From Candidatus Wolfebacteria bacterium (lineage in GTDB: Bacteria > Patescibacteriota > Minisyncoccia > UBA6257 > UBA9933), in NCBI GenBank assembly GCA_024654025.1, contig JANLIR010000002.1:168959-232958 (forward strand): a DNA stretch of 64,000 nt. Direction: 5' to 3'. Both the position numbers and the translations under genes were made by a program. Of this stretch, positions 13,050 through 31,760 are shown in pieces (positions within the stretch are counted from its first letter, which is position 1; each line of letters begins with the position of its first letter). The notes beneath the pieces were generated by a model. That model had not been told where the DNA came from and ran no database searches. It worked only from the letters and a program-made list of their open reading frames with translations.

Positions 13050-13628
13050 ATGATTTACTCTCTCTCTGGAAAGCTCACCGTAAAAACCAAACTTTTTATC
13101 ATTATTGAAACAAGTGGAATCGGCTTTAAAGTTTTTGTTTCGCGGCGGACAATTAATAAGCTTCCGAAAATAAATTCGAAAGCGAAAATTTTTTGCCATA
13201 CTTACGTCAAACAAGACGGAATCGAGCTTTACGGATTTTACGATAAAACCGAAATGGACGTTTTTGAAATGTTAACTTCAATTAGCGGCGTTGGTCCGAA
13301 AATGGCTTTAAAAATTTTATCGGTCATAAAACCGGAAGAATTAATGTCGGCCGTAAATAAAAACCGCGCCGATCTTCTTACAAAAATTTCCGGAGTCGGC
13401 AAAAAAACAGCCGAGCGGATAATTTTGGAATTAAAAGACAAAATAGCCGTTAAAGAAAGCGAAGAAATTATTTCTATGCTGGAAATCGATATTGACATTT
13501 CCGAAGCGCTCAAAAGAATGGGTTATAGGCAAAACGAAGTGAAGGAAGCCGTAAAAGCTATTTCTTCAAAAAGCGAAAAACCGGAAGAAAGAATAAGGGA
13601 AGCATTGAAATTTTTAAATAAAAGATAG
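13050..13628 (+). CDS. ruvA: Holliday junction DNA helicase RuvA
   Basis: N-terminal OB fold, HhH motifs (LTSISGVGPKMALKIL, LTKISGVGKKTAERIILELK), C-terminal domain III. Confidence 0.9.
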   Translation: MIYSLSGKLTVKTKLFIIIETSGIGFKVFVSRRTINKLPKINSKAKIFCHTYVKQDGIELYGFYDKTEMDVFEMLTSISGVGPKMALKILSVIKPEELMSAVNKNRADLLTKISGVGKKTAERIILELKDKIAVKESEEIISMLEIDIDISEALKRMGYRQNEVKEAVKAISSKSEKPEERIREALKFLNKR

Positions 13629-13635
13629 TTAAATT

Positions 13636-13780
13636 TATTCCCAATCAAATATATTCCCGCTACCGTTCAACCGCCCAGCGAGCGATTTCACTGGCGCCGC
13701 TTCTTCGCTCGGTCGCCACAGGCGACCACCGTGCCCGCTCAGTCGCGGAGCCGCGCTGTGAATATATTTGTTTGAGAATA
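13636..13780. mobile_element. MITE-like element or structured RNA: GC-rich core between 21-nt imperfect terminal inverted repeats
   Basis: TATTCCCAATCAAATATATTC (13636-13656) pairs with GAATATATTTGTTTGAGAATA (13760-13780), 19/21. The core contains GGTCGCC aca GGCGACC. Confidence 0.5.
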
Positions 13781-13790
13781 TCAAATAAAA

Positions 13791-15152
13791 ATGAATTTAG
13801 AAAAAATTTTAAATTTAGGAAGGAAAGTTATTCCAAAGCCTGTTTTTGAATTTTTTCAGCCAGCCTACCATTGGATGCTGGCTTTTTTAGGCGCTTTTCT
13901 TTACGGCTCTCCGTCAAAAAATATGATAATTATCGGAGTTACGGGCACAAAAGGCAAAACTACCACTTGCGATCTTATTGCTCAAATTTTAAATTCGTTC
14001 GGCTATAAAACCGCGCTTGTTACCACTGCCTTGGTGCGCATAGGAGACGAGGAGTGGAAAAACGAGCATAAACAAACAATGCTTGGCCGGTTTAAGCTCC
14101 AGAAATTTTTAAGCCAAGCCGACGAGTTAAAATGCCGGTACGCTGTTGTGGAGACATCTTCAGAAGGTATTTTGCAATACAGGCACCGGTTTATAGATTA
14201 TGATGTGGCGGTTTTTACCAATCTATTCCCTGAACACATAGAACGCCACGGCGGTTTTGAAAATTATAGAAACGCTAAAGTAAAATTATTCGAAAAACTG
14301 GCAAAAAAAGACAACGGAATAGGAATTTATAATTTAGATGATTCGGATGTTAATTATTTTTTGGAGCCCGGAATAAAAACAAAAATAGGATATACAATAA
14401 ATAACCAACGACCAACAACTATTAATCAAGAACTCATGGAATCTTTGCAGAAAATTATCGAAGTTAAAAATATTGAACAGGGACTAGACGGATCGAAATT
14501 TTCAATTAATGGCGAGAGATTCAAAACTCCCCTGATAGGAGAATTTAATGTGTACAATGCGGTAGCCGCTATTACTGTTGCGATATCCCAAGGTGTTCCG
14601 CTTAATAAAATAAAACCTATTATTAGCAGAGCAAAACAAACTCCCGGCAGATTGGAAAAAGTAGAAAACGAAAAAGGATTCACGGTCATTATTGATTACG
14701 CGCATGAACCGTTTAGTTTGGAATCGGTTTACAAAGCAGCCGCAAGTTACAAAGCGAAACCTAAAAGTTCTATGTTGTGCCTTTTGGGAGCCCAAGGCGG
14801 CGGACGAGACAGATGGAAGAGGCCGAAAATGGGAAGTATCGCCGCTCAATATTGCGATAAGATAATTTTAACAAATGAAGATCCTTACGACGAAAATCCA
14901 AATCAAATTTTAGACGATATCGAGGAAGGCGTTCGAGCTGGATTTCGCAACAATCCAAAAAAATTCGCAACCGTAAATAAAATTATAGATAGAAAAGAAG
15001 CAATCCAAAAAGCTGTTTCTCTTGCGAAAAAAGGCGATGTTGTGGTTTTAACCGGTAAAGGCGGAGAAACATTTATGTGTATTGAGAATAATAAAAAAAA
15101 TCTCTGGGATGAAAAAACGGTTGTTGAAGAGGTATTGAATAGTTTCTCATAA
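13791..15152 (+). CDS. Mur ligase family protein (MurE-like)
   Basis: GVTGTKGKTTT P-loop, DYAHEPFSLESV, TNEDPYDENP. Confidence 0.75.
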   Translation: MNLEKILNLGRKVIPKPVFEFFQPAYHWMLAFLGAFLYGSPSKNMIIIGVTGTKGKTTTCDLIAQILNSFGYKTALVTTALVRIGDEEWKNEHKQTMLGRFKLQKFLSQADELKCRYAVVETSSEGILQYRHRFIDYDVAVFTNLFPEHIERHGGFENYRNAKVKLFEKLAKKDNGIGIYNLDDSDVNYFLEPGIKTKIGYTINNQRPTTINQELMESLQKIIEVKNIEQGLDGSKFSINGERFKTPLIGEFNVYNAVAAITVAISQGVPLNKIKPIISRAKQTPGRLEKVENEKGFTVIIDYAHEPFSLESVYKAAASYKAKPKSSMLCLLGAQGGGRDRWKRPKMGSIAAQYCDKIILTNEDPYDENPNQILDDIEEGVRAGFRNNPKKFATVNKIIDRKEAIQKAVSLAKKGDVVVLTGKGGETFMCIENNKKNLWDEKTVVEEVLNSFS

Positions 15153-15217: not shown

Positions 15218-15718
15218 ATGGATAAGCAGATCTACTATGGGTTGCTGTCTCTTATTCCTATTTCGGGCATTGTTCTAGTTACTGTCACTGCAATTTTATT
15301 GATTGTAAAGTTGAGGGCGGTTAAGGGGCAAACGATAATAGTGCTTTTTATAATTGGAGTTGCTCTATGCGAGCTTCGGCCGCAAGAATTAAAAAACGTC
15401 ACGATTTTTTCTGAGTTGCCAGACAATCGTTATCAAATTGCCGGTCAAGTGCCAACAGTTAATTATGCGATAATTAGCTACAAGGGAAGAAATGGAATCG
15501 ATGTGGTAATGGTTAAGGATGTTCCGGGCGATTTAAAATTAGGCACGATTTTTGTCATTAAAAATGGGCAGGTGGAAATAGAGTGGCAACCGGAAGACCA
15601 ACAAGAGGAACAACAAAAAAAAGAACAAAAAGAAGAGACAGAGGAATATAGATTCGGTCCGTATGATTTTCGTATCAGGGCGGCCTCCAAAGATAAGGAG
15701 GCTGCTTTTTTTGCGTAA
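15218..15718 (+). CDS. hypothetical membrane-anchored protein (GC-richer cassette)
   Basis: GAGGAGGGGGtagcgATG RBS, two N-terminal TM helices, acidic/Gln-rich tail. Confidence 0.5.
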   Translation: MDKQIYYGLLSLIPISGIVLVTVTAILLIVKLRAVKGQTIIVLFIIGVALCELRPQELKNVTIFSELPDNRYQIAGQVPTVNYAIISYKGRNGIDVVMVKDVPGDLKLGTIFVIKNGQVEIEWQPEDQQEEQQKKEQKEETEEYRFGPYDFRIRAASKDKEAAFFA

Positions 15719-15723
15719 AAAAA

Positions 15724-15742
15724 GGTCCCTTATGCAGGGACC
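15724..15742. terminator. hairpin between convergent cassette genes
   Basis: GGTCCC ttatgca GGGACC. Confidence 0.55.
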
Positions 15743-16017
15743 ACCTCAACTCCTTTCTTTTCCGGGGGGTTTCTCCGAAAATATTCTTTGGCCTTGTCGC
15801 AGGCCGCGGCAAAAGCGGCCGGCGCGACAACGTAGTTGTGAGTGTCACGCGTGTGCGCGCCCGGCTTAAATCTCTCATTAAGACCGCCGGCTGTTACGAT
15901 ACGACGACCGAAGCGTGTCTTGTGACGGAAAGGTATAACAACCCCCTCTGTCCAGACCTGAACGATGTTTGGGTTGCCAAGCTTCTTTCCTGTTTCGAAA
16001 ACCCAGACATTCAGCAA
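15730..16017 (-). CDS. hypothetical protein (GC-rich cassette), TTG start
   Basis: gGAAGGAGGcgcaacTTG. 95 aa. No family recognised. Confidence 0.45.
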   Translation of the reverse strand: MLNVWVFETGKKLGNPNIVQVWTEGVVIPFRHKTRFGRRIVTAGGLNERFKPGAHTRDTHNYVVAPAAFAAACDKAKEYFRRNPPEKKGVEVVPA

Positions 16018-16031
16018 GTTGCGCCTCCTTC

Positions 16032-16214
16032 CTAATAGTGAAAGGTCAGGATCGACTTCATGAAAGCGGGATACCGAGAAGTCAGGATCACCATCATGAA
16101 GGCGAACACGGTCATGATCAGCATCCCTCTGAATATCGGCTGGAAAAACCTGCGAGTGAAGTGGTCATTCCGCTTCCTTTTGCTGTTGTGCTTCTGGTTC
16201 GTATAAATAAACAT
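16032..16214 (-). CDS. hypothetical small membrane protein (GC-rich cassette)
   Basis: GGGGGGTGAaaATG at 16214, one TM helix (GMLIMTVFAFMMVILT), 60 aa. Confidence 0.4.
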   Translation of the reverse strand: MFIYTNQKHNSKRKRNDHFTRRFFQPIFRGMLIMTVFAFMMVILTSRYPAFMKSILTFHY

Positions 16215-16303
16215 TTTCACCCCCCACAAAGATTTTTTACGATCTGGCTAAATAGTAGCATATTTTTTAAAGTTTGTAAAGAGGGGTAAAATAGCCCGTC
16301 TAT

Positions 16304-16687: not shown

Positions 16688-16767
16688 CCAGTATTTTTGT
16701 TAGTATTTTATAAATGTTGCTCGGGTAAACATTATTTAAATTGTACCACGTGTAATACGATAAACAA

Positions 16768-17199
16768 ATGCAAACAAAAAAAATTACAGCAGAATATATT
16801 AGGGGCTTTATTGAGGGCGTGGGAACTTTTACTTTCACAACCTCGTCACGGGGTTTCAATAAAAAGGTTAAAATACCAACTTTTCAATTAAGAATGAATA
16901 TTCGAGATAAACGGTTAATTGAATTGATTAAAGGACATCTCGGACTTAAAAATAGGGTTTATATGTATCATTATCCGGGAACTGATGGCGCAAAACGAGG
17001 GCCACAAGCGATGTTAATAGTCCGAGAAATAGGTAATCTGAAAAATATAATCATCCCTTTCTTTTACGATAAGCTGGTTGGGTATAAAGCAGCCCAATTT
17101 AATAAGTGGCTTGAAAGAATAGGTAAAGACTCGGAAGTGCCAGAGGGATTTAAGATTCTATACCGTCTTCATAAATCCGGTTGGTTTTCAAAGAAATAG
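16768..17199 (+). CDS. free-standing LAGLIDADG homing endonuclease (single-motif type)
   Basis: AEYIRGFIEGVGTFTF is LAGLIDADG-like. 143 aa. Confidence 0.7.
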   Translation: MQTKKITAEYIRGFIEGVGTFTFTTSSRGFNKKVKIPTFQLRMNIRDKRLIELIKGHLGLKNRVYMYHYPGTDGAKRGPQAMLIVREIGNLKNIIIPFFYDKLVGYKAAQFNKWLERIGKDSEVPEGFKILYRLHKSGWFSKK

Positions 17200-17227
17200 C
17201 ATTAAAATGGTTTAGTAGGTAAAAATA

Positions 17228-17255
17228 CTAATTCGGCAATGGTCATTGCCGAATT
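17228..17255. repeat. 12-bp-stem palindrome
   Basis: AATTCGGCAATG gt CATTGCCGAATT. A related hairpin lies at 17450-17485 (AGTTCGGCAATCC ... GGATTGCCGAACT). Confidence 0.7.
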
Positions 17256-17483
17256 AAAATAGGGGTTTTGCCGAATTAAAATGTTGGGAATGTTTTACAA
17301 CCAACACTTTGAATCAAATTTTAAGGGTCTAAAGTGTCAAAAATGTTTATCAAGTTTTGATAAACAATCTTTTACGACAGATTAGCTTAAAATTGGGCTA
17401 AAAAGTGTTTATCAAGTTTTGGCAAACATTTTCGGAAAGTTTAGTAAATAGTTCGGCAATCCGTTATTTGATGGATTGCCGAA

Positions 17484-18218: not shown

Positions 18219-18330
18219 TGCGCGTTGAGGGGATTGAACCCCCGACCTGTCGCCTAAGGCGACCGTTCTAACCAACTGCTCCGACGCTTCGGTCGGAGCC
18301 CCGACTTCGTATTAGCGAACGTCGGAGAGC
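18219..18330 (-). pseudogene. tRNA-like remnant or aberrant tRNA
   Basis: The minus strand has a normal D-loop/T arm/acceptor 3' strand (..AGTTGGTTAGAAC G GTCGC cttag GCGAC AGGTC GGGGG TTCAATC CCCTC AACGCGC A). The anticodon loop is only 5 nt and there is no matching 5' acceptor strand. It is preceded by interlocking hairpins GCTCTCCGAC/GTCGGGGC and GCTCCGAC/GTCGGAGC. Confidence 0.3.
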
Positions 18331-18339
18331 TAAAAATTG

Positions 18340-18568
18340 TGGACGCGCCCCGACTCGAACGGGGGACCTTCTCGGTGTCCCGCACAAAGTGGGTGCTATA
18401 GGATTCGAACCTATGACCTTCGCAGTGTAAATGCGACGCTCTAACCAACTGAGCTAAGCACCCACTTTAAGCGGGATTGCGATTTGTTTTTAAAAATTTT
18501 ATATCAAATTAAATTTTTAGACAAATCGGGAATAAACGAGACGCTCTAACCAACTGAGCTACGCGTCC
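18340..18568 (-). tRNA. interrupted tRNA-Val (outer gene); exons 18535-18568 and 18340-18379, 155-nt insert
   Basis: 5' half GGACGCG TA GCTC AGTTGGTTA GAGC G TCTCG TT. 3' half GACAC CGAGA AGGTC CCCCG TTCGAGT CGGGG CGCGTCC A. Joined, they form a perfect 74-nt cloverleaf. Confidence 0.6.
18390..18463 (-). tRNA. tRNA-Val(UAC), nested inside the interrupted tRNA-Val
   Basis: GGGTGCT TA GCTC AGTTGGTTA GAGC G TCGCA TTTACAC TGCGA AGGTC ATAGG TTCGAAT CCTAT AGCACCC A. No encoded CCA. Confidence 0.9.
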
Positions 18569-18569
18569 A

Positions 18570-19184
18570 CTATTTGATTTTATCGTCTCCATTGCTATTC
18601 TCTTTGCTTAACGCATTAAAGACTTTTTTCAGAGCGTATTCAAAAAATATAACTCCTATTATTAAAAGCGTCAAAAACAGGGCGGCTCGTTTTAAATCGT
18701 GTTTAAGAATATCGGTTTGGTGCGCAAAAAGGTATCCAAGAGAAATTAATAAAGTTGTCCAGACAGCTGCGGCGGTTGCGCTGTATTTCAAAAGTTTTTT
18801 AAGCGAAATTTTTGAATAGCCGGCGCAGACTAAAACTACTCTGTTTAAATTCCACGCGAACTTGGAAATAAAAATCCAAAAACCGCTTCTTTTTTCCAGT
18901 TTCCGCAAAATCGGCGCGGTGTTTTCGGTTGTAAAAAATAAAAATTTTTTCCGTCCGCTTTCAACCAATCTTTTACCCAAGCTCCAATAAAAAAGATCGC
19001 ACAAGATAACCCCGATAAAAGCCGTTATTAGCGAAGGGAAAAAACCGACAGCTCCGCTTCTTACCAATACTCCGGTCAGTACCAGAATAATTTCTCCCTC
19101 TATGAACATTCCTATAAATATGGCCAAGTACGCGAGTATTCGGTGAACTTCGGAGAGATTTAAAAACAAGGATTCAATATGCAT
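18570..19184 (-). CDS. DedA/SNARE-associated family membrane protein
   Basis: FIEGEIILVLTGVLV...ILCDLFYWSLGKRL and polytopic topology. Confidence 0.8.
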   Translation of the reverse strand: MHIESLFLNLSEVHRILAYLAIFIGMFIEGEIILVLTGVLVRSGAVGFFPSLITAFIGVILCDLFYWSLGKRLVESGRKKFLFFTTENTAPILRKLEKRSGFWIFISKFAWNLNRVVLVCAGYSKISLKKLLKYSATAAAVWTTLLISLGYLFAHQTDILKHDLKRAALFLTLLIIGVIFFEYALKKVFNALSKENSNGDDKIK

Positions 19185-31579: not shown

Positions 31580-31760
31580 GCCGAAGTAGCTCAGTGGCAG
31601 AGCAACTGTTTTGCGTCAGCCCCGTTAGATATGCCGGGATAGCTCAGTGGTAGAGCAACTGTTTTGTAAACAGTAGGTCGTCGGTTCGAATCCGACTCTC
31701 GGCTCTCTCGGTGTATCTAACGGGGTAAATAGGTCGCGAGTTCGAATCTCGCCTTCGGCT
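31580..31760 (+). tRNA. Thr-like tRNA shell interrupted by a complete tRNA-Thr (outer gene; possibly a pseudogene)
   Basis: 5' part GCCGAAG TA GCTC AGTGGCA GAGC A ACTGT TTTG... 3' part ...TAAAT AGGTC GCGAG TTCGAAT CTCGC CTTCGGC T. The acceptor pairs perfectly. The 3' anticodon-stem strand is missing. Confidence 0.45.
31633..31704 (+). tRNA. tRNA-Thr(UGU), nested
   Basis: GCCGGGA TA GCTC AGTGGTA GAGC A ACTGT TTTGTAA ACAGT AGGTC GTCGG TTCGAAT CCGAC TCTCGGC T. Confidence 0.9.

Follow-up and report, generated by a model that had tools for sequence, protein, structure and literature searches.

The DNA analyzed here (the window) is a 64,000-nt stretch of contig JANLIR010000002.1 from a Candidatus Wolfebacteria bacterium (assembly GCA_024654025.1, positions 168,959 to 232,958). 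In the spacer between its ruvA gene and a MurE-like Mur ligase gene lies a 145-nt element (13636-13780), which belongs to an apparently undescribed family of dispersed, non-coding elements. The hosts are Parcubacteria-type members of the candidate phyla radiation (CPR), both Wolfebacteria-like and Yanofskybacteria-like. Members of the family have a conserved, strand-specific fold and occur as dispersed copies, which have been gained or lost at tight gene junctions, have flipped in place, and have exchanged core or apical P3 modules. With about even confidence, the family is interpreted as a non-autonomous mobile element resembling MITEs (transposable elements of the miniature inverted-repeat type), the functional unit of which would be a folded single strand, either RNA or single-stranded DNA.

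A conserved, strand-specific fold

The first-pass annotation of this DNA, which was made from the letters alone, had described a 145-nt element with a GC-rich core between 21-nt inverted arms, and this description held. The arms TATTCCCAATCAAATATATTC (13636-13656) and GAATATATTTGTTTGAGAATA (13760-13780) are complementary at 19 of 21 positions, a value never reached by shuffles of the window. The GC content rises to 65% within the element, compared with 27-41% in the flanks and about 37-40% in the genome. The hairpin GGTCGCC-aca-GGCGACC is present at 13711-13727, and both strands fold far better than their dinucleotide shuffles (z = -5.3 and -5.4). The proposed pairing of CGAGCG with CGCTCG lies outside the fold supported by covariation, in which these bases fall in the P2' helix and in the stem and loop of P4. 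An internal direct similarity that had also been pointed out is present and recurs in relatives, but no meaning could be assigned to it. The strand quoted at that time was the wrong one, the structured strand being the minus strand of the window.

Copies of the element were collected by scanning metagenome contigs with a pattern of 19 specified bases, taken from a block in the P4 region that is shared by five versions of the ruvA/mur locus. On the minus strand, the window copy (a member with a short P3) is matched by covariance model R1 at 13642-13774 (121 bits, E = 2.7e-27). The overall fold is modeled as a three-way junction of P1, P2/P2' capped by P3, and P4. In every copy the 5' arm is followed by nn-GCGC, a 7-nt strand (S5a), an 8-nt strand (S5b), CGGGCAyGGU, P3, GAG, an 8-nt strand (S3a), a 7-nt strand (S3b), AGUGA, a 6-nt stem strand, the loop UCGCUGG, a second 6-nt stem strand, GAACGGUAG, and Cnn with the 3' arm. 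S5a pairs with S3b to form P2, and S5b pairs with S3a to form P2'.

The closing stem P1 joins the 5' arm UAUUCUCAAACAAAUAUAUUC (13760-13780) to the 3' arm GAAUAUAUUUGAUUGGGAAUA (13636-13656). It measures 15-25 bp in the family, and its arm sequences are unrelated between subfamilies yet always complementary. The junction GCGC (13753-13756), 3' of the 5' arm, is invariant in alignment A2 and was parsed in 39 unique copies. P2 pairs GGCUCCG (13746-13752) with CGGCGCC (13693-13699); its outer three pairs covary (GC, CG, UA and AU), and the inner part is irregular. P2' pairs CGACUGAG (13738-13745) with CGAAGAAG (13700-13707) over eight positions, in the order C-G, tandem G·A/A·G, C-G, U-A, tandem G·A/A·G and G-C. 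Two covarying Watson-Crick pairs thus lie between two tandem G·A/A·G motifs. The closing pair alternates between G-C and A-U, and the G·A positions are conserved between copies, as in CGACUGAG/CGAAGGAG, CGACCGAG/CGAGGGAG, CGAACGAG/CGAGUGAG and GGAGUGAA/UGAGCGAC.

The internal-loop strand CGGGCACGGU (13728-13737) is near-invariant throughout the copies, the divergent L090 and L112 types among them, and the GAG 3' of P3 (13708-13710) is invariant. P3 itself is a variable module, in which pairing is kept while sequence and length change. It is GGUCGCC-UGU-GGCGACC in the window (13711-13727) and elsewhere either a 14-31-nt hairpin whose sequence varies or a branched domain of 142-151 nt. The P4 hairpin (13669-13687) consists of a 6-bp stem, AAUCGC/GCGGUU, in which five of the six pairs covary, and the 7-nt loop UCGCUGG (13675-13681). 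In all copies this loop is either UCGCUGG or UCGCCGG, also in divergent types that were not chosen by the search pattern. AGUGA, 5' of P4 (13688-13692), is invariant in the copies found, but this conservation is not independent evidence because AGUGA belonged to the search pattern; the L090/L112 type lacks it. Together with GAAC on the opposite side, it is a probable extension of P4 by G-C, U-A and tandem G·A pairs (GUGA/GAAC). The junction GAACGGUAG (13660-13668), 3' of P4, is likewise conserved, partly as imposed by that pattern.

Covariation in relatives is strong. In a MAFFT alignment of 16 sequences, for which the structure was not used in fitting, 75% of the cells were paired, compared with 52% after shuffling and 32-46% in slid controls. 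The covariation score was 0.61 (0.18 shuffled, about 0.10 slid), and 29 of 41 pairs changed on both sides. On four of the five measures none of 500 shuffles came up to the observed values; on the remaining one, the count of pairs changed on both sides, two of the 500 did. A second, model-fitted alignment of 37 distinct copies gave 76.5% paired cells (50.3% shuffled, 30-44% slid) and a score of 0.68 (0.18 shuffled, about 0.10 slid). For P1 in these 37 copies, 14 of 15 pairs changed on both sides, 95.9% of the cells were paired, and all four Watson-Crick types were seen at most positions.

Comparison of the minimum free energy (MFE) of the two strands gave no consistent answer between copies. 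For the window copy the MFE structure (-65.6 kcal/mol) has a different local pairing from the covariation model (-52.7 kcal/mol, or -60.9 kcal/mol with extra pairs allowed), and the MFE fold predicts that in short forms the P4 loop can pair with the adjacent CCAGUGA. The covarying helices, read in the window-minus orientation, contain 64 G·U against 22 A·C combinations, and about 200 G·A juxtapositions stand at fixed places where the complement strand would show C·U/U·C mismatches. These asymmetries show that the functional fold belongs to one strand. In the window it is the strand antisense to ruvA and mur; in L014 and L094 it is the sense strand. RNA and single-stranded DNA alike can stably form tandem G·A pairs, G·T/G·U wobbles and C-GAA-G triloops, the last of which are frequent in P3.

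The long P3 domain (142-151 nt) replaces the hairpin in L129, L014, L093, L103 and L090 and was found, among the loci examined, only inside members of this family. It has a Y-shaped fold with 24 covarying pairs, which is conserved from L014, L093, L103 and L129 to the divergent L090. One of its hairpin loops, UCCAGCG, is invariant, and the CCAGCG within it is exactly complementary to CGCUGG of the P4 loop. From these sequences a kissing interaction between the two loops is a candidate; in L014, whose P4 loop UCGCCGG is the only natural variant in a long form, the P3 loop is not compensated. The window and L129 have identical elements except for P3, and their Mur ligases are about 100% identical. 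Since the window P3 resembles that of other short copies (e.g. L142) and is unlike a remnant of the L129 domain, the module has been swapped, and gene conversion by way of the conserved flanks is the simplest route.

The element is non-coding. A protein search with the 49-amino-acid open reading frame (ORF) that spans it returned no homologue, and the P3 lengths are not multiples of three and break the reading frame, which excludes coding. Rfam 15 (4227 families) gave no match at gathering thresholds and none at E ≤ 10 over window positions 13500-13900, and the long forms in L014, L093 and L090 were also unmatched. That the first-pass annotation recognized no known RNA family in it was therefore correct for this release. 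Full-text literature searches turned up no account of an element of this kind in CPR bacteria.

Copies of the element and its history at ruvA/mur

The scan of metagenome contigs matched 72 stretches, about 58 of which had the full architecture; these are further copies of the kind that the first-pass annotation had proposed to look for. The remaining 14 or so were chance matches in coding DNA (e.g. a ligA-like gene), and viral contigs gave no match to the same pattern. The copies are 126-279 nt long and lie at unrelated intergenic loci. Contig OBEQ011399297.1 (70 kb) carries four of them, and two each are present on Ga0209515_10000707, L103, L112 and L144. By its S41 peptidase the four-copy contig is Yanofskybacteria-like, so the family spans different Parcubacteria lineages.

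Most copies are situated 5-35 nt from the flanking genes, between tandem, convergent or divergent pairs, and the neighbors are housekeeping genes such as those for RNase J, AtpA, RecO, L9 and a copper ATPase. Orientation is unbiased, both with respect to tandem neighbors (sense to antisense about 10:11) and to local GC skew (11:14). At the junction of the S41 peptidase and ribosomal protein L9 genes, L139 has an element, while only 6-20 nt separate the genes in three relatives (86%, 77% and 76% identity). The arms of at least 40 copies have no common consensus, only complementarity, and are shared within subfamilies. Arms of the GCAGATATGGATAT type were found at loci with unrelated neighboring genes, indicating that the arms travel with the element.

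Two unusual arrangements were seen among these copies. In L103 (4873-5399) and L112 (3817-4121) two members stand head-to-head, with their 5' ends facing and 48-117 nt apart; one member of the L112 pair is of the divergent L090-like type and lacks the GUGA/GAAC motif. A 100-nt mini-version in L136 (589-688, also in L158) retains P1, P2 and P4 but has neither P2' nor P3 nor the CGGGCAyGGU loop. It is an internal deletion derivative, and its arms resemble those of L122 and L147. Within the window, matches to GGTCGCC-N3-GGCGACC at 18248 and 24235 were a tRNA-like anticodon arm and a terminator-like hairpin, and not copies of the element.

At the ruvA/mur locus the element begins 8 nt past the stop codon of ruvA (13050-13628, plus strand; an ORF whose orthologues carry the Pfam domains RuvA_N, HHH_5 and RuvA_C). 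It ends 10 nt ahead of the ATG of the Mur ligase gene (13791-15152, plus strand). The latter ORF is 100% identical to P0001, a UDP-N-acetylmuramyl-tripeptide synthetase from a metagenome-assembled genome of Candidatus Wolfebacteria, and the closest relatives of the genome are Wolfebacteria and other Parcubacteria. Most of the Wolfebacteria relatives that keep ruvA-mur synteny have no element. The two genes overlap or are 0-30 nt apart in L001, L003, L005, L006, L008, L010, L012 and L013, and in L081 (87% Mur identity) the ruvA stop overlaps the mur ATG. Because most relatives have such a tight junction, the element is an insertion into it.

Filled versions of this site are limited to a small subclade and differ in orientation and length. 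The fold lies on the minus strand in the window (145 nt, short P3), in L129 (279 nt, long P3, arms identical to those of the window), in L093 (269 nt, long P3) and in L090 (270 nt, long P3, with very divergent sequence and different arms). It lies on the plus strand in L014 and L082-L089 (273 nt, long P3) and in L094 (149 nt, short P3). By Mur identity these genomes form the groups {window = L129, L014, L081}, {L093, L094} and L090, with 90% identity between L093 and L094 and 88% between the window and L014. It follows from this grouping that the orientation changed at least twice, that the length of the central domain changed at least twice, and that L081 either lost the element or never had one. 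In the filled genomes ruvA ends with ...AAAAGATAR (in L093 with ...GCGATGA) regardless of the orientation of the element, while in L081 it reads on to the stop that overlaps mur. Such a pattern is consistent with a single old insertion and later flips at the same position.

The identity of the core does not follow the host, and the trees of element and host disagree. Between the window and L094 the core is 90-94% identical and the third codon positions of mur are 51% identical; between L093 and L094 the corresponding values are 69-80% and 86%. The arms at this locus have undergone compensatory changes, pairing CUCAAAC with GAUUGGG in the window, CUCGCUC with GAGCGAG in L094 and CGCGAGC with GAUCGCG in L014.

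The repeat has also affected public gene calls. The Mur ligase call in L094 (P0006, 463 amino acids) starts in the element (1626-1658), about 10 codons before the conserved ATG, and L093 has a called 91-amino-acid ORF that runs across the element. The repeat is the cause of both of these artefacts.

Nature of the element

Under the interpretation favored here, the family is selfish and MITE-like, and spreads or persists as such. The conserved core would be recognized by a factor that acts in trans and is encoded at another place, and P1 would only have to pair. Selection of copies for propagation, together with gene conversion, could then leave an invariant core beside free-running arms. At the locus in the window, an old insertion after about codon 190 of ruvA would have supplied the ruvA stop codon, a later inversion would have occurred in some lineages, and in this genome the long P3 domain would have been exchanged for the 17-nt hairpin. 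A MITE had been one of the possibilities named in the first-pass annotation, and the behavior of the element supports it. The element is multi-copy, dispersed, intergenic, non-coding and shorter than about 300 bp, is polymorphic in its presence and is found in both orientations, but its terminal repeats are not conserved between copies.

This last point and several others weigh against the MITE-like interpretation. In classical MITEs the terminal repeats are conserved and the interior drifts, a pattern that the element reverses. No mobilizing or partner gene recurs beside the copies, whose neighbor proteins cluster only by orthologous locus, and none of the copies has a gene-sized (kb-scale, "autonomous") insert between the core halves. 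No clear or consistent target-site duplication was detected at the copies; the flanks are AT-rich, many copies end with ...GC|GA and have RA on the opposite side, and the difference between empty and filled sites is not confined to the element. The window holds a single copy, repeat scans and R1 having found no second one in its 64 kb. Almost no match was obtained in 640 kb of Mur-ligase neighborhoods from 80 other Parcubacteria, so the family is patchy. The search pattern also skews the sample to one subtype. Finally, the ruvA/mur copy has persisted while synonymous sites became saturated, and this persistence, together with the compensatory changes in the arms, could equally reflect host-level selection for a functional RNA.

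A Y1_Tnp (PF01797) gene was noticed on Yanofskybacteria-like contigs (L169, 18400-19200, and L170). It is flanked by, and contains, the hairpin CTTGGAAGCTCAACTTCCAAG, and thus represents a REP/RAYT-like arrangement in a CPR genome. As a candidate mobilizer of the element this transposase was rejected, again to the disadvantage of the mobile-element interpretation, since its hairpins are unrelated and no copy of the element lies on those contigs.

The main rival, possible though on balance unlikely, is that the copies are structured small RNAs that are useful to the host, for example as part of a ribonucleoprotein. P1, long and perfectly paired, would then be a processing stem, cut by an RNase III-like enzyme to free a core of about 100 nt, and the invariant loops CGGGCAyrGU and UCGCUGG would be contact sites for protein or RNA. 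A structured non-coding RNA had been suggested in the first-pass annotation as well, and the conserved, covarying, strand-specific fold supports this. The three-way junction, the tandem G·A pairs of the sheared type flanked by covarying Watson-Crick pairs, and the G·U pairs on one strand are as expected of an RNA. The long P3 adds its own covarying Y fold and the candidate kissing loop with P4. Conservation of the core far exceeds that of synonymous sites in the neighboring gene, and the copy at one locus has long been kept in streamlined genomes, with compensatory changes in its arms. Against this, the flanks of the copies show neither enrichment of -10-like hexamers upstream nor of U-tracts downstream, and the element thus has no sign of a promoter or terminator of its own. 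Half of the copies are antisense to the surrounding operon, and the copy number ranges from one to at least four per 60-70 kb. Presence varies among close relatives and most of the sampled Parcubacteria lack the element, which would be unusual for an RNA that is needed. The uncompensated P4-loop variant of L014 also speaks against such a role. A related view, which we regard as rather improbable, is that the family represents a new class of structured RNA in some CPR bacteria, whose three-way-junction core, including the tandem G·A motifs and the possible kissing loop between P3 and P4, would be catalytic or part of a ribonucleoprotein and would also drive, or depend on, the mobility of the element itself. 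It would then be an RNA-centered mobile element without a protein gene, and not a decayed transposon.

Two explanations that are confined to the locus fare less well. The element might be a cis-acting part of a ruvA-mur transcript, i.e. a leader or attenuator, an intercistronic terminator, a stabilizer or an RNase III site, as is known of REP/BIME, ERIC or Correia repeats. Its distances of 8 and 10 nt from the two genes leave no room for a separate promoter, so it would be co-transcribed if ruvA and mur form an operon; the 21-bp stem can be formed by either strand, and copies elsewhere are typically also close to gene ends. However, the fold that depends on G·A and G·U pairs lies here on the strand antisense to ruvA and mur but in L014 and L094 on the sense strand, most relatives lack a spacer altogether, and the same core lies between unrelated tandem, convergent and divergent gene pairs. 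These three observations exclude the gene-specific leader of the Mur ligase that had been considered in the first-pass annotation, and make a cis-acting role at this locus quite doubtful; a generic by-product effect on the processing of operon mRNA is a minor possibility. We consider it most improbable that the element is an invertible DNA switch (inverton), in which the 21-bp repeats would serve as recombination sites and flips of the core would alter downstream expression. Such a switch would account for both orientations at one site in close relatives, which arose independently at least two times, but recurrent flips are expected of any segment between inverted repeats. All eight contigs of the L014 lineage, although from different samples, have one orientation, and the window and L129 share the other. 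The GC-rich core has no evident promoter. No invertase gene adjoins the element, the XerC-like gene about 5 kb upstream being present also in relatives without it, and copies have differing arms, which leaves no common site for an invertase.

The genomes of CPR/Patescibacteria are very small and densely packed, and descriptions of non-coding elements from them are few. In the present case an element of 130-280 nt is wedged into junctions that otherwise overlap, and its core is nearly unchanged across Wolfebacteria-like and Yanofskybacteria-like hosts. If the family is selfish, it shows that streamlined genomes of episymbionts have active mobile DNA or RNA as well as gene conversion, and it would point to a mobilizing enzyme that reads a folded core instead of terminal repeats. 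As a functional RNA, on the other hand, the family would constitute a new structured class with more than 50 members. In either case the covariance model permits annotation of copies, which would prevent spurious ORF calls and wrong start codons such as that of mur in L094.

Relation to known systems and other features of the window

MITEs and palindromic intergenic repeats of bacteria have been reviewed (PMC10969869, PMC3184786). Rickettsia palindromic elements (RPE), ERIC, the Correia elements of Neisseria and BOX/RUP resemble the present family in being non-coding, multi-copy elements of 100-300 nt that are mostly intergenic, close to gene ends, found in both orientations and polymorphic in presence. 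They also share modular size variants, a predicted long hairpin-like fold, and the appearance of GC-rich islands in an AT-rich, reduced genome. Unlike these repeats, which keep their terminal repeats or whole sequence, the element has variable termini and a near-invariant, strand-specific core. This core is branched and has tandem G·A pairs as well as the kind of covariation that structured RNAs typically show. No clear target-site duplication and, at the loci examined, no parent insertion sequence were found. By its behavior the element belongs with such repeats (e.g. RPE, ERIC and Correia), but its variable termini and conserved branched core with RNA-type motifs reverse the pattern usual among them.

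In REP/REPIN-RAYT systems and in the PATEs derived from IS200/IS605, folded single strands are the substrate, and non-autonomous intergenic elements are mobilized in trans by a single-copy gene. The junction GAACGGUAG at the 3' side of the element contains the tetranucleotide GTAG known from REP/RAYT, which is a resemblance only. The architecture is different, REPs being simple hairpins of 20-40 nt and REPINs pairs of these, and the family does not belong with REP/REPIN-RAYT. No transposase, RAYT, TnpA or reverse transcriptase gene adjoins any copy, nor is there a strand bias relative to GC skew.

Candidate non-coding RNA motifs of the Rfam type are similar in their multi-helix fold with compensatory changes, invariant loops and a variable apical domain, and in forming a GC-rich island in an AT-rich intergenic region. 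However, they usually lack insertion polymorphism and random orientation, both of which the element shows. Mobile GC clusters and double-hairpin elements of yeast, fungal and sponge mitochondria, including the GC-rich hairpin elements of sponge mitochondrial genomes (PMC2800124), are likewise short GC-rich hairpins that invade AT-rich spacers of small genomes. They differ in being organellar, simple hairpins of 30-60 nt without a conserved branched core.

Several other systems were considered and rejected. TIGR arrays (Tas-associated guide arrays), reported from parasitic bacteria, consist of tandem 8-12-nt edge and loop repeats with spacers of about 9 nt and an adjoining gene for a Nop-domain protein (PMC12045711), whereas copies of the element are single and dispersed and have no recurrent neighbor gene. 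A retron msr/msd is contradicted by flanks of ruvA/mur or housekeeping genes, with no reverse transcriptase beside any copy. A Mur riboswitch was dismissed on the antisense fold in the window, the absence of the element from most ruvA-mur relatives and its occurrence between unrelated genes. GUGA-[P4]-GAAC appears similar to the stem-II side only of a hammerhead, and no model of a hammerhead or other small self-cleaving ribozyme matched at E ≤ 10. Resemblances to attC, to the signal recognition particle and 6S RNAs and to RNase P were dropped, as the defining partner was lacking or no model matched.

Some further features of the window were noted in passing. Beside tRNA-Val (18389-18463) lies a GC-rich, tRNA-like stretch on the minus strand (18219-18388). 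Its part at 18219-18281 matches the Rfam tRNA model below threshold (22 bits, E = 0.03), and more sequence resembling a tRNA half follows. ARAGORN found no tRNA gene in this stretch, with or without introns, and the stretch may represent a tRNA that is degenerate, split or unusual in some other way. Fragments similar to tRNA 5' halves are present at 18533-18571 and 31580-31613, beside intact tRNA genes, with 87-88% identity to parts of the neighboring tRNA-Val and tRNA-Thr.

Between the Mur ligase gene and these tRNA-like sequences, about 500 nt (approximately 15700-16250) have a GC content of 47-62% and, on both strands, no ORFs other than short, overlapping ones. Rfam gave no match to this region at E ≤ 1, and it may be another structured non-coding one. 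By synteny with L082 (12493-12978), an ORF for a free-standing LAGLIDADG homing endonuclease is located at about 16750-17250. It lies downstream of a YraN-like gene in all close relatives, and inverted repeats are found near it at 17340-17432.

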